Shown one piece after another: positions 4,493 through 57,894 of a stretch of DNA of 64,000 nt (position 1 is its first letter; each line of letters begins with the position of its first letter). This DNA is from a virus (lineage: Duplodnaviria > Caudoviricetes), in IMG/VR virus record IMGVR_UViG_3300048861_000178, positions 251,191 to 315,190 of that record. One strand, written 5' to 3'. A model generated the notes under the pieces. It had not been told where the DNA came from. It made no database searches and saw only the letters and a list, made by a program, of their open reading frames with translations. The position numbers and the translations under genes are program-made.

Positions 4493-4560
4493 TAGTTCTT
4501 GAGCTCAAGGACTCCAGTAGTCACTCTCTTTCTTAAATCCGATAAACAAGGAAATGCATC

Positions 4561-5046
4561 ATGACCACGACTGTTAAAGAATCCATCGTCTTCAAGCCGG
4601 AAACGCGTGAACTGGCCGACAAGATCAAGCAGCACATCAAGCTCGATCCGAAGACCGGCCTCGCCGATCCGGAAAAGCTGAAGGGCGTGTACGTCGAACT
4701 GCTGCCCGAAGGCGTGAGCGCCGACACCGTGCTGGCAATCGACAACCACAACACGCGCTTCGCCGCCGCATCGTTCCTGGCACTCGGCGAAACCGGCGTC
4801 GACTTCTTCAAGAAGCACAAGACCGTCAACGAAGTGCAAGCCACGTTCCCGACGGTCGGCAAGTCGAAGTTCGAAGGCGTCTTCGAGCGCTCGTCGCAAG
4901 TGCGCGCACCGGGCCAGGAGCCGACCACCAAGTTCGGCACCGGCTCGATGAAGCTCGACTTCTACGGCGCGTCGCAATCGCGTGGCGAATTCAAGAAGGT
5001 GCGTGATCACCTGACGGACATCGCCGCGTCGGCGCTGAGCGACTAA
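4561..5046 (+). CDS. Hypothetical protein, probably highly expressed
   Basis: AAACAAGGA RBS, very strong codon bias, hairpin downstream at about 5087-5113. Confidence 0.8.
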   Translation: MTTTVKESIVFKPETRELADKIKQHIKLDPKTGLADPEKLKGVYVELLPEGVSADTVLAIDNHNTRFAAASFLALGETGVDFFKKHKTVNEVQATFPTVGKSKFEGVFERSSQVRAPGQEPTTKFGTGSMKLDFYGASQSRGEFKKVRDHLTDIAASALSD

Positions 5047-29488: not shown

Positions 29489-29713
29489 ATGTTTAGCCAT
29501 GTGAGAAACCTGGCTCGATGGTGGCTGCGGGAGATGAAGTGGCTCTACCATGATTTTTCATGGTTCCCTTCTCTCCAGGCGGCCGCCAATCGCAAAGTTC
29601 ATCGGTCCTCACCCCGGCTGGCGCAAGCTCGGGTGAATAGACATCATGCGCGACGTCCCCAGCTGGGGAAGGCAACGCGGGTTAAGGGTGCCCGTAGTAC
29701 CTTCAGCCATTGA
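29489..29713 (+). CDS. Possible small basic protein
   Basis: 74 aa ORF after phuZ, weak RBS, atypical codon use. Confidence 0.3.
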   Translation: MFSHVRNLARWWLREMKWLYHDFSWFPSLQAAANRKVHRSSPRLAQARVNRHHARRPQLGKATRVKGARSTFSH

Positions 29714-30126
29714 GGCGATGCGCTTGGCCCGTTGATTCGGACCGATGATTTGGCCATGCGCAGACTCTTAGTCCCATACCAGCCGAACCGCGCATCAGGC
29801 GCAGGGGGTGCATCAGGGATTAAGAGATCTTTTACATTCCGTGAGCAATGGCCTGCCACCACCGGTGAGCAGGAGGCAATAAGTGCGACAGTTTTCAAGG
29901 GAGTACCTGAAGCTTCTGTTCCAAGGTCCATGGACTGTTGGAAAGATCGCATTAGGACCTAACTCTTGGCTCGCATCTTGAGATGTCCAGACCGCCTCAG
30001 TTCCGACCGCAACAATCCCACAGTCTGTTTTACGGGTCGCTGTTTGGGTGAGCACCGGACGAGGCGAGTCCCTTTTATGCCTTCCAGTAGGAGGGTGCAA
30101 AAGGGACTGATTATTTTTTTATGCCG
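29711..30126 (+). ncRNA. Candidate structured non-coding RNA A
   Basis: No credible ORF; nested helices found by eye (29711-17/29993-99, 29765-75/29816-26, 29852-56/29869-73, 30067-76/30099-108); ends in T run plus TATGCCG. Confidence 0.45.
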
Positions 30127-34064: not shown

Positions 34065-34104
34065 GCCAGGGTTTACCCTAGTTAATTTATATCGCCCATC
34101 CGTA

Positions 34105-34575
34105 ATGTTCTGAAGAGAAAGGCCCGGCAAGCCTGTACCCTCATCGACATCAGGCCTCCTCCTGACTGGTGCCGGTAAGGACTCTCGCGCGAGCCCTCCC
34201 GCGGGCTACCGCGCCGTATGCCTAGACGCGGGGCTGGCTTATTCACGCTGCTGGGGTTTCCTCCTTGTTTCCCCTGGCACCAGCGTTTCCTCGTACATCG
34301 ATCCTACTCCTATCGCTGCTCTGCGCCTCCGCAAGCGCTCTTTGGCGAATATAGGAGTCTCCTGTGGAAGTTGGTCGATCGCGTGGATTAAGAGTAAGCT
34401 GGCCCCTGTCTACCTCGATTTTGGTTGAAGTGGTAGTGGTAGTAGAGTCTCTGTGGCTCCGAATCGCTCGGGCATGTTCAGTGACTGGTTTTCCTTTTCG
34501 GTACTTGTAACGACCTGTATTTAGGCGAGGTGGCGGCCCGAAACCGCTCCTCGCCCTTTTTTCCTTTTTATGCCG
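34105..34575 (+). ncRNA. Candidate structured non-coding RNA B with anti-Shine-Dalgarno loops
   Basis: ~570-nt ORF-free gap with four hairpins capped by CCUCC-type loops and a plus-strand terminator; the 5' end is a guess. Confidence 0.55.
34523..34575 (+). terminator. Intrinsic terminator with T runs and TATGCCG
   Basis: GGCGAGG.GGCGG-loop-CCGCT.CCTCGCC then TTTTTTCCTTTTTATGCCG. Confidence 0.75.
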
Positions 34576-34631
34576 TCGATTCGTTTTTATTGGGCTCCTT
34601 GATCATGTAGGTCGACAAGGAGTAAAACAAA

Positions 34632-36761
34632 GTGTCAGAAGCGAACAACCCATTTGTACTGGCGCCTTCCCAGTACAAGCGCGATCTAAACGTACTGGGC
34701 TATTATGTCCAGGATTGCGCGACCTATTTGCATCAAATGACGGGGGCACCGATCGAGGACTGCACCACCTTTGTGAAAACAGAGATGCGTCCTGGCGGAC
34801 AGTTCGAATTCAAGGACCCGAAGATCGTCTACCTGGAGCGCCAGGAAAACGGGGATCGTGTCCAGATGGAAGGCACGCTGCAAGCCTACCTGAATGATTC
34901 GATCCGTAACAAAGAACTCATTGCCCCGACGCTTACCACGTATTTGCACCCCGATGTGAAGCAGTCACCGCTCGTCGACTACATCGAGGGCAACGTGAAG
35001 GCACGGGGGGTGGCGAAGAAGGCCAAGTTCAAGGCGGAAATGGAAGGTGACATCGTCCTGATGCAGATCAAGGACAATGAGCAGACCAATAAGAAGCTGG
35101 CGAATAACTCGATCTCGGGTGCGCACGTCAGTCCTTCGACGCCGCTGTACAACAAGACCGCCCACTCGACGCTCACCTCGAACTGTCGTTCGACCTCGGG
35201 CTTTGGTAATGCGAATAACGAGAAGTTTCTCTCGGGCAATCGTCATTACTGGTCGATCGAGATCTGCATGCAGAATATCATCTCGATTATCAACCACACG
35301 GACTATGCAGCGCAAGCTGCGGCGATGCGCAAGTTTGGCATTCGTCATCCGTCGGTCGATGAGACGATGGAATGCATCATGTACTCGACCAACTTCTATG
35401 TGCGCGACAAGTTCAAGATGAAGAAGGTGTATGACCTGGTGAAGACGCTCTCGCCTGAGCAGCGTTCTGCCTTTGTCTACACCGGGGACTTGTACCACCT
35501 GATGCGCTTCAATGACGAGGTGGTGCGTACCTTCATCACCAAGTTGTCGATGATGGTGGAAGTGCCGCATCCGGAGCCCGATAGCATCTTGAAGACGGTG
35601 CAAGAAGAGCACGTGCACCTGGCAGCGCAAATCTGTGAGCGCTACACCAAAGGCTTGCAGATGCATGAAATCGTGGGTGAGGCTCGTGGTATTCTCGCCT
35701 CAACGGCCAAGAACATCGGCGACGTGGGCGAAGAGTATCGGGATCTGATCGCGGCTTTCTGGGTGACGACCAATGTCCCGGCCTCGCTTGCGTTCTTCCC
35801 GGATTCGATTCGTCGTTCGGCGATTACGTCGGATACGGACTCGACCATCTTTACCGTGCAAGACTGGGTGCTCTGGCATCAGGGCTGGCTCGGTTTTGAT
35901 GAGAAGTGTAATGCGGTCGCGGCCTCGATGGTGTACCTGGCGGCACAGACCATCATTCACGTGTTGGCGCGCATGAGTGCGAACTTTGGGATTGTGGAGA
36001 AGTACATTCACAAAGTCGCCATGAAGAACGAATTCAAGTTCGACGTGTTTGTCGCCACCCAGGTGGCCAAGCACTACTTCGCCTTGATTGGCTGCCAGGA
36101 AGGCAACCTCTTCAAGGAGTACAAGAAGGAAATCAAGGGCGTGCACTTGAAGGCGTCGAATGCGCCACGCTTTGTGATTAAAGAAGCCGAGAAGATGATG
36201 CTCTTTATCATGAACTCGGTGCTAAAGGGCGAGAAGATCAAGATTCACGATATCCTGAAAACGATTGCTGACATCGAGCGCCAGATCTTTACGGCGATTG
36301 GCGAAGGCGGTTATCAGTTCTTCCGGATGGGTCAGATCAAAACGCCCGATTCGTACGCGAAGTCGGCGGAAGAATCGCCGTATCAGCAGTACGTGATGTG
36401 GAACGAGGTATTTGGTCCCAAGTACGGTATCGCCCCCCCTGTACCGTACACGTGTGTCAAGATTGCCACCGAGCTGGACACACCGACCAAGACCCGTGAG
36501 TGGTTGGAATCGCTTGAGGATCGTGAACTGGCAGGTCGTATGGAAGCGTACATGAAGCGAATGGGTAAGCGCTATGTGGGCTCCGTGCAATTGCCGGAAC
36601 AGAATCTCCAGACCAAGGGGATTCCGACTGAGATCCTCCAGGTGGCCGGGGTGCGTAAGATCGTTGCGGATGCTACGCGCGTGTTTTACATTATCCTCGA
36701 AACGTTGGGCATTTATTTGTCCAATGACAAGCTCACGCGGCTGGTGAGCGACTCGCACTAA
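34632..36761 (+). CDS. Family-B DNA polymerase, polymerase-domain subunit (phiKZ gp50-like)
   Basis: Motif B KKLANNSISG, motif C SDTDS, KHY and KGVHLK; no exonuclease domain, consistent with the split polymerase of this phage group. Confidence 0.88.
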   Translation: MSEANNPFVLAPSQYKRDLNVLGYYVQDCATYLHQMTGAPIEDCTTFVKTEMRPGGQFEFKDPKIVYLERQENGDRVQMEGTLQAYLNDSIRNKELIAPTLTTYLHPDVKQSPLVDYIEGNVKARGVAKKAKFKAEMEGDIVLMQIKDNEQTNKKLANNSISGAHVSPSTPLYNKTAHSTLTSNCRSTSGFGNANNEKFLSGNRHYWSIEICMQNIISIINHTDYAAQAAAMRKFGIRHPSVDETMECIMYSTNFYVRDKFKMKKVYDLVKTLSPEQRSAFVYTGDLYHLMRFNDEVVRTFITKLSMMVEVPHPEPDSILKTVQEEHVHLAAQICERYTKGLQMHEIVGEARGILASTAKNIGDVGEEYRDLIAAFWVTTNVPASLAFFPDSIRRSAITSDTDSTIFTVQDWVLWHQGWLGFDEKCNAVAASMVYLAAQTIIHVLARMSANFGIVEKYIHKVAMKNEFKFDVFVATQVAKHYFALIGCQEGNLFKEYKKEIKGVHLKASNAPRFVIKEAEKMMLFIMNSVLKGEKIKIHDILKTIADIERQIFTAIGEGGYQFFRMGQIKTPDSYAKSAEESPYQQYVMWNEVFGPKYGIAPPVPYTCVKIATELDTPTKTREWLESLEDRELAGRMEAYMKRMGKRYVGSVQLPEQNLQTKGIPTEILQVAGVRKIVADATRVFYIILETLGIYLSNDKLTRLVSDSH

Positions 36762-42087: not shown

Positions 42088-42169
42088 ACTGTGCTGGATT
42101 AGAGAATCGCTCTTTTCTAGCATACACTCGAGTGTATTAAACGATAATTCTGAAACAAGGAATAGCACT

Positions 42170-44158: not shown

Positions 44159-44244
44159 CTTTTTACAGGGGTGAGGTATCTATTGGAGTATCATCTAGCT
44201 AGTGGTATTCCGTACCCGAGTAAACAGGAAACAAGGAGAAACGA

Positions 44245-57865: not shown

Positions 57866-57894
57866 TTAACGGATCATGAAACAAGGAGGATGCC

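Follow-up and report, generated by a model that had tools for sequence, protein, structure and literature searches.

A conserved structured RNA with pyrimidine-rich loops beside the DNA polymerase gene of shell-encoding jumbo phages

Introduction

The closest described counterparts of the element reported here are Staphylococcus aureus RNAIII (RF00503) and the RsaE/RoxS-type small RNAs (sRNAs), which carry C/U-rich apical loops complementary to the Shine-Dalgarno (SD) sequence. The element is a plus-strand non-coding RNA (ncRNA) of ~470 bases (34099 to about 34568) in a 64-kb stretch, hereafter the window, of IMG/VR virus record IMGVR_UViG_3300048861_000178, which is 315 kb in full; it consists of multiple helices and ends with a strong intrinsic terminator. 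Similar to RNAIII, a regulatory RNA of ~500 nt, it is built of many hairpins, and occlusion of ribosome-binding sites (RBSs) is the action that we propose for it. Its apical loops 1, 3 and 4 are C/U-rich and predicted to be single-stranded, as in the RNAIII-type class, and their complementarity to RBSs is largely generic. However, the two RNAs have no homology in sequence or structure (cmscan was negative), and the phage RNA differs in its Gram-negative hosts, its U-rich loops with a CCUCC/UCCU core instead of UCCC, and the absence of an embedded open reading frame (ORF) like hld.

Other known systems share single aspects of the locus. In phage T4, RegA binds RBS regions and RegB cuts GGAG, and both switch off the translation of a class of phage mRNAs. 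Shut-off through the RBS is the common feature, but the T4 effectors are proteins whereas the effector proposed here is RNA. The gp43 operator of T4 and RB69 consists of one short hairpin in the mRNA leader of the polymerase gene. The element reported here likewise precedes a T4-like DNA polymerase gene and touches the SD region; in contrast, it is ~470 nt long, and a terminator and a TATG start motif stand between it and the leader, which sets it apart from operators of this type. CsrB, RsmY and RsmZ are also multi-hairpin RNAs with a short repeated loop motif, but that motif is GGA, which binds CsrA, whereas GGA lies on the non-functional strand here and the plus-strand loops read CCUCC.

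For the jumbo phages phiKZ and 201phi2-1, ncRNA candidates derived from 5′ untranslated regions (UTRs) or from intergenic regions have been described (PMC11512511; bioRxiv 10.1101/2023.10.13.562163). They resemble the RNA reported here in being Chimalliviridae-type jumbo-phage ncRNAs that are bounded by terminators and conserved in position among related phages, but they are <250 nt long and come from elsewhere in the genome (one example is located upstream of the tail gene gp182), and neither a position ahead of the DNA polymerase gene nor anti-SD loops are reported for any of them. An earlier note on this DNA knew of no such RNA in nucleus-forming phages, and our searches agree with it. The cmscan of the whole window against Rfam 15 (4227 covariance models) gave nothing at the gathering score, and relaxing the limit to E up to 10 brought in nothing but noise (SNORD67, PVT1); GOLLD, ROOL, HEARO, OLE, 6S, tmRNA, RNase P, introns and ribozymes were among the classes without a match, and the tRNA/tmRNA scan found none. 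Literature searches yielded no description of this RNA, and the paper on the Ralstonia phages RP12 and RP31 is silent on the region.

A structured RNA on the plus strand

We are highly confident that the element is a real, conserved and structured plus-strand RNA whose family is absent from Rfam. The gene-free gap that contains it is also present in Burkholderia phage FLC9, the closest named relative of the phage (73% nucleotide identity across the locus), and in six viral contigs with polymerases that are 85-99% identical. Using an alignment of seven sequences, the gap of this phage with relatives (alignment A2), we curated 77 base pairs in 13 helices. Standard pairing was found in 96.7% of the cells, and 22 of the 77 pairs carried changes on both sides, so the covariation check suggested in the earlier note came out in favour of the structure. 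None of 500 column shuffles reached the observed pairing and compensatory values; sliding the partners by 1-3 columns left ~45% of the cells paired, with 3-7 two-sided-change pairs. Selection maintains both the pyrimidine-rich loop sequences and the pairing of the stems.

The gap was correctly described in the earlier note as an ORF-free stretch of ~570 nt with a plus-strand terminator: it spans 34065-34631 (567 nt), and the terminator has a fold z-score of -4.3. The ORFs that can be read in it differ between this phage and FLC9, and therefore nothing in the gap is coding. The z-score check of the fold was partly borne out, in that the hairpin 4 domain (z = -3.3) and the terminator stood out, whereas the region as a whole reached only -1.6.

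The minus strand, with a fold z-score of -2.0, presents loops that read AGGAGG and AAACAAGGAGGAAA. The earlier note had kept in reserve the reading that these GGA/GGAGG loops form a CsrA/RsmA sponge or are the RBSs of tiny minus-strand ORFs. However, G-U cells outnumber A-C cells in the alignment by 110 to 17, the same structure has 93% standard pairing when read on the plus strand but 82% on the minus strand, and the RNAalifold energy worsens from -198 to -180 kcal/mol. The terminator is predicted to function in the plus orientation only, all neighbouring genes lie on that strand, the minus-strand ORFs are not conserved, and Rfam returned no CsrB/RsmY/RsmZ match. We give this fallback hardly any credence.

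Part of this evidence also bears on readings of the gap as DNA, for instance as an origin of replication or a site for packaging, with the hairpins formed in single-stranded DNA. The gap adjoins a DNA polymerase gene, and the genome numbering of published relatives starts in this neighbourhood. Nevertheless, the strand-asymmetric G-U pattern and the U-tract terminator indicate RNA. The cumulative GC skew has no turning point here, although the skew was uninformative; no iteron-type repeats were noticed in the alignments or in sequence reads, without a dedicated repeat search; and an AT-rich unwinding stretch, as origins typically have, is not apparent from the sequence. A DNA-level element is highly improbable.

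From 5′ to 3′, the locus is organised as follows.

34080-34098, plus strand: conserved spacer AGTTAATTTATATCG, 3′ of the stop codon of the upstream gene
34099-34134, plus strand: 5′ block UCCGUAAUGUUCUGAAGAGAA with hairpin AGGC[CCGGCAA]GCCU, invariant in the seven sequences except for one pair
34150-34165, plus strand: hairpin 1, TCAGG[CCTCCT]CCTGA, displaying the invariant motif CCUCCUCC (34155-34162)
34187-34214, plus strand: hairpin 2, outer stem GCGCG/CGCGC and inner stem GCCC/GGGC, including AGCCC[TCCCGC]GGGCT (34192-34207)
34223-34412, plus strand: central domain, closed by a 20-bp long-range helix (34223-27/34408-12 and 34230-44/34392-406)
34246-34285, plus strand: hairpin 3, 14-nt loop UUUCCUCCUUGUUU (34257-34270), the putative anti-RBS element, on a covarying stem
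34306-34358, plus strand: hairpin 4 domain, apex GCGC[CUCCGCAA]GCGC (34323-34338), fold z = -3.3
34361-34386, plus strand: hairpin 5, CCUGUG/CGCGUGG, with compensatory changes in three of six pairs, followed by conserved GAUUAAGA
34413-34503, plus strand: variable region, 31% identical to FLC9, with a clade-specific hairpin whose loop is UUUUCCUUUU (34489-34498)
34504-34520, plus strand: arm 1, CUUGUAACGACCUGUAU, single-stranded, invariant in the seven sequences, just 5′ of the terminator
34524-34568, plus strand: intrinsic terminator, hairpin 34524-34555 followed by CUUUUUUCCUUUUU, -21.9 kcal/mol, z = -4.3
34569-34575, plus strand: TATGCCG, a motif that recurs after hairpins throughout the phage
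34605-34622, plus strand: arm 2, AUGUAGGUCGACAAG, with the AAGGAG SD sequence of the DNA polymerase gene, invariant in the seven sequences

The four hairpins with C/U-rich loops listed in the earlier note were all found on direct reading of the sequence, including TGCG[CCTC]CGCA at 34322-34333. For the apex of hairpin 4, however, covariation supports GCGC[CUCCGCAA]GCGC in place of that pairing, since the apex changes as GCGC/GCGC, ACGU/ACGU and GCGG/CCGC. The loop conservation that the earlier note asked to have checked holds for loops 1 and 3, which are invariant as their stems change, and fails for loop 2, where UCCCGC is replaced by GAAA, AUUA or GCAA in relatives. Hairpin 1 has the stem UCAGG/CCUGA in this phage, GCGG/CCGC in the FLC9 clade and CCGC/GCGG in the uncultured lineage L017; alone it is thermodynamically weak in this phage (z = -0.3), but FLC9 and L017 have a distinct hairpin of 4-7 bp. 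Hairpin 2 keeps its outer stem unchanged, and its inner stem covaries, with CG changing to UA at two pairs.

The central domain contains hairpin 3, a three-pair hairpin, the hairpin 4 domain and hairpin 5. Every cell of its long-range helix is paired, with compensatory changes at three pairs and G-U transitions at many. Hairpin 3 consists of GGGG[TTTCCTCCTTGTTT]CCCC (34253-34274) with the closing helix CGCTG 34246-50/CAGCG 34281-85, and its loop is invariant across relatives except for one C-to-U change in FLC9. The base helix of the hairpin 4 domain, ACTCCTAT 34306-13/ATAGGAGT 34351-58, has four compensatory pairs. Within the full-length RNA, loops 3 and 4 are predicted to be unpaired with probabilities of 0.92 and 0.93 and the loop 1 motif with 0.72, against a mean of 0.36. 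As in other terminator-bounded sRNA genes, the RNA ends with a GC-rich hairpin and a U tract on its own strand; the tract is U6CCU5, the hairpin has four compensatory pairs, and its loop is inverted in lineage L014.

The 5′ block, which comprises two small hairpins, is the best conserved primary sequence of the family. Its sole change in the seven sequences is a compensatory A-U to G-C pair (34120/34134), and it is recognisable in the more distant lineages L018, L020, L026, L041, L021 and L038. The spacer AGTTAATTTATATCG in front of it may hold a promoter or processing site of the RNA. In it, AGTTAWWTTTAT(AT)CG is kept across seven relatives, and TATG-type motifs stand there in distant relatives. 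The spacer differs from the early-promoter-like motif ACCTATATTAC seen elsewhere in the window. The promoter search before the RNA found neither a sigma-70-like site nor an early-type ACCTATATTAC motif; the conserved AGTTAATTTATATCG and TAATG are present. A TATGCC within the RNA, at 34217, is not kept in relatives.

Occurrence and genomic setting in jumbo phages

Relatives of the RNA are found near the DNA polymerase gene throughout a clade of shell-encoding jumbo phages. A related polymerase is encoded by 43 viral contigs. Where the polymerases are 47-59% identical, nearly all have a 240-850-nt gap before the gene; where they are 34% identical, none has. Related RNAs near the polymerase gene occur in FLC9, RP12, RP31, FLC4-3B and about 20 uncultured lineages, and judging from their alignments and folds, their stems appear to covary around a fixed U-rich UCCU/CCUCC loop. 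The distant gaps retain the 5′ block (TAAT..TGA..AAGGGC-loop GGCA-GCCC), at least one long hairpin with a U-rich loop centred on UCCU or CUCC, and a terminal hairpin followed by a T-run/TATGCCG.

In minimum-free-energy folds of 23 lineages, pyrimidine-rich loops made up 26 of 189 hairpin loops on the gap plus strand, compared with 7 of 209 on the gap minus strand and 7 of 182 in the polymerase coding sequence; 17 of the 23 lineages had at least one such hairpin loop. The 15-bp long-range helix is preserved in L017 with three additional double compensatory changes; the 3′ half of L017 was misaligned when it was added in MAFFT, and its helices were read by eye and from RNAfold. The Ralstonia clade has a version of its own, separated from the polymerase gene by one or two genes, in which 21 pairs are compensatory and the invariant loop GUUUYCUUCCUUUA sits on a covarying stem. 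Profile searches reached less far: covariance model R1, built for the 5′ part from close relatives only, weakly matched L018/L019 alone (E = 0.36), and the weak matches of the nhmmer profile were confined to L017. At 3720-3925 of L018, a low-GC lineage, the 3′ strand of the long-range helix is followed by T10-GCCG, and the domain-closing helix therefore seems to double as a terminator.

With genes for a nuclear shell protein (phrog_4795) and for split RNA polymerase subunits, the phage is a phiKZ-like, nucleus-forming jumbo phage. Its next relatives after FLC9 are the Ralstonia phages RP12, RP31, FLC4-3B and FLC1-1B. A 141-aa gene (phrog_3235) lies upstream of the gap, and the T4-like DNA polymerase gene (phrog_2927) lies downstream, with a GTG start at 34632. 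Public runs that contain this stretch are soil, rhizosphere and plant DNA metagenomes only; none is RNA. Identity to FLC9 is 55% in the RNA, 69% and 79% in the flanking genes and 82% in the polymerase leader, and conservation in the gap is concentrated in the loops, the 5′ block and the leader. Low overall conservation with these conserved parts is the pattern expected of an RNA.

Complementarity of the loops to ribosome-binding sites

The RNA is the strongest anti-SD cluster of the genome. CCTCC occurs five times in its 472 nt, compared with 0.19 copies expected from the genome plus strand (Poisson p = 1.6e-6); this count is the genome-wide maximum and 26-fold above the plus-strand density. 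The coding strand is depleted of this pentamer, of which its 315 kb contain 124 copies. The loops copy what we take to be the CCUCCUU core of the 16S rRNA 3′ tail, and loop 3 shares CCUCCUU.

Loop 3 is the reverse complement of AAACAAGGAGGAAA, or of GGGGAAACAAGGAGGAAACCCC when the stem is included. As claimed in the earlier note, its complements at the RBSs of shell and RNA polymerase genes are exact: the plus-strand matches are 13 nt at 57878 and 12 nt at 44227, and further exact complements of 10 nt lie at 42152 and 31882 and of 9 nt at 4544 and 23549. In total, seven RBSs in the window carry exact complements of 9-13 nt. Every match is located 5-10 nt 5′ of a start codon, and four of the matched RBSs precede the genes for the shell protein and RNA polymerase subunits. 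The best loop-3/RBS duplexes have predicted energies of -20.1 and -18.7 kcal/mol, and 7.5% of RBS windows reach a loop 3 dG of -12 kcal/mol or lower, compared with 1.2% of random windows.

The commonest extended RBS of the phage is aAACAAGGAg, and loop 3 exactly complements the extended motif AAACAAGGAG(GA), with the single G of the loop opposite the unusual C of the RBS motif. The AACAAGGA core has 40 plus-strand copies genome-wide against about five expected, and about 31 of them stand before ORF starts, including those of the shell and RNA polymerase subunit genes; FLC9 has 49 copies on the coding strand against four of a reversed control. In this phage, the core is ~8-fold over-represented, almost solely before start codons, and its AAAC portion is unexplained by pairing with the usual 16S tail. 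An early-promoter class was considered as an explanation for the AACAAGGA genes and rejected, as there are only nine early-like motifs genome-wide and the RBS class is spread over the whole genome. In L017, the loop is UUUCCUUGUUUU, and the lineage shares the AAACAAGG RBS class in 5 of 78 genes, compared with 0 of 317 in five other lineages, which suggests co-variation of loop and RBS across lineages. We regard the AAACAAGGAGGA RBSs as putative targets of loops 1 and 3. In RP31 (L050), at 4604-4631, the RBS TTAAAGGAAAGAAA upstream of ORF013 is perfectly complementary, over 14 nt, to the pyrimidine loop of RP31 itself.

The polymerase leader and the TATGCCG motif

Arm 1 (34504-34520) can pair with 34605-34619, the segment of arm 2 that runs into the polymerase SD sequence, through 15 bp with a 2-nt bulge, and its unpaired probability is 0.68. 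We propose arm 1 as a candidate second seed for the polymerase leader. The TATGCCG motif lies between the two arms, and the structured RNA ends 65 nt before the polymerase start codon. The motif has 15 sites in the window, most of them directly 3′ of a GC-rich hairpin. Examples of hairpin-(T)TATGCCG sites are the following.

3840, 8004, 16782, 22692, 23103 and 37321: plus strand
55081, 26967, 20962, 19200 and 7960: minus strand

Between genes, the hairpin-TATGCCG unit resembles punctuation in which a terminator and a promoter are joined, and can be compared with the TATG of phiKZ, whose late promoter is TATG with the start site at G (PMC4666361). By this analogy, TATGCCG at 34569 is the likely start of the polymerase mRNA. 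The pairing of the arms may reflect regulation of the polymerase mRNA in trans by the free RNA, or masking of the polymerase RBS in cis in read-through transcripts.

The second of these possibilities can be extended to the whole element, which would then belong to a transcript of its neighbours, either as an extended 3′ UTR of the upstream operon or as a leader that transcription crosses on its way into the polymerase gene. The arms together with the anti-SD loops would mask the polymerase RBS in read-through transcripts, and translation would proceed only from the TATG-started mRNA. The helix of arms 1 and 2 is indeed the minimum-free-energy fold of 34500-34625 (-39.5 kcal/mol, z = -2.1), with RNAalifold in agreement; neither arm varies, and 82% of the leader is conserved; at equivalent places, L017 carries complementary segments of another sequence, CUCUAUUUGU and ACAAACGGAG; and no recognisable promoter stands in front of the RNA. 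However, the U tract is unusually long, unlike that of the usual hairpin-TATGCCG punctuation, which argues for efficient release. Moreover, no equivalent arms were found in the Ralstonia clade with its one or two intervening genes, and the 400 nt of conserved structure are not needed for an action in cis. Overall, a purely cis-acting element appears quite unlikely.

Two further features of the window were recorded. The early-promoter-like motif GATTSAAA-N-ACCTATATTAC has nine copies genome-wide, all on the plus strand, with six counted in the window; some of them lie ~45 nt 3′ of a TATGCCG. The sites recorded in the window are as follows.

3889, 22730, 23141, 27876, 38475, 50511 and 55526: plus strand, early-promoter-like motif

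Downstream of a tubulin-like gene, 29710-30126 is a second gene-free stretch rich in helices; a long hairpin followed by a T7 run and TATGCCG (30120) closes it, and pyrimidine-rich loops are not obvious in it.

Discussion

After weighing the structural and comparative data, we regard an RNAIII-like anti-RBS action as the best single explanation of the RNA, with a probability of roughly 45%. The putative mechanism would be as follows. The RNA would be released as a discrete transcript, and its exposed loops CCUCCUCC, UUUCCUCCUUGUUU and CUCCGCAA would pair with the purine-rich RBSs of mRNAs and keep 30S subunits off. Pairing would be strongest with the phage's own extended class AAACAAGGAG(GA), comprising the shell gene, three RNA polymerase subunit genes and about 25-30 others, and would damp or time the translation of these genes. 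The single-stranded seed at 34504-34520 could pair with the leader and the SD edge of the neighbouring polymerase mRNA. A stronger form of this proposal, in which the RNA is a master regulator tuned to the AAACAAGGAG(GA) class that times the phage translation programme and reaches the polymerase leader through the second seed, seems to us unlikely.

Several observations weigh against an anti-RBS action. The loop energies correlate with the 16S tail energies (r = 0.70), and the cross-phage matrix of loop-versus-RBS energies has no diagonal, that is, no preference of a loop for the RBSs of its own phage. The C share before AAGG tracks G+C content, and the link between CCUUG loops and CAAGG RBSs is also confounded by shared ancestry; AACAAGGA is enriched as well in RP31, FLC4-3B and G003, the loops of which carry CCUUU and lack CCUUG. 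The complementarity is thus real but mostly generic anti-SD. The polymerase RBS is no special target of the loops, with z not significant in any of 19 lineages, and both arms of the leader pairing are invariant and hence without covariation. Titrating many mRNAs would require a very abundant RNA, the transcript and its 5′ end are predictions from the DNA, and the 5′ block, the most conserved primary sequence, is unexplained by anti-RBS pairing.

Some of these observations fit a protein-binding or decoy RNA, in which the UCCU/CCUCC loops would bind a protein and not mRNAs, so that the RNA would serve as a sponge or scaffold. The partner could be ribosomal protein S1 or Hfq, a cold-shock protein, an RNA-binding protein of the phage (ChmC, for example), or else a toxin or other factor recognising the anti-SD tail. 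The loops of low-GC lineages are mostly U around a UCCU core, for example UUUUUUUCCUUUUAA (L025) and CUUUUUCUUUCCUUUUUCA (L027), and loops of this kind would be as suitable for proteins that bind single-stranded pyrimidines as for pairing. The invariant 5′ block with its GGCA-loop hairpin resembles a protein site, the terminator hairpin with its U tail is an Hfq-type module, and the lack of own-phage preference is in line with this explanation. However, the protein partner is not nameable from the sequence, the match of the loop-3 G to the C of the RBS motif in two lineages is unexplained by a pyrimidine binder, and the 13-14-nt perfect complements to single RBSs in this phage and at RP31 ORF013 suit pairing better. 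We consider a decoy somewhat unlikely, and retain anti-RBS pairing as the preferred explanation.

In either case, the conservation of the RNA across phages whose polymerases are just ~50% identical, and its location in the core replication block, single it out for study. Few, in fact almost no, large structured phage regulatory RNAs have a known function, and how the translation of mRNAs exported from the phage nucleus is timed is an open question in jumbo phages. The family has cultured members, FLC9 on Burkholderia glumae and RP12, RP31 and FLC4-3B on Ralstonia, in which the hypothesis is directly testable; knock-down with antisense oligomers has a precedent in phiKZ (bioRxiv 10.1101/2024.07.31.605949). 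The loops and their complements suggest that the RNA probably acts on translation. If our proposal is true, the RNA would be an RNA-based counterpart of the RegA/RegB shut-off of T4 and the founding member of a new Rfam family.

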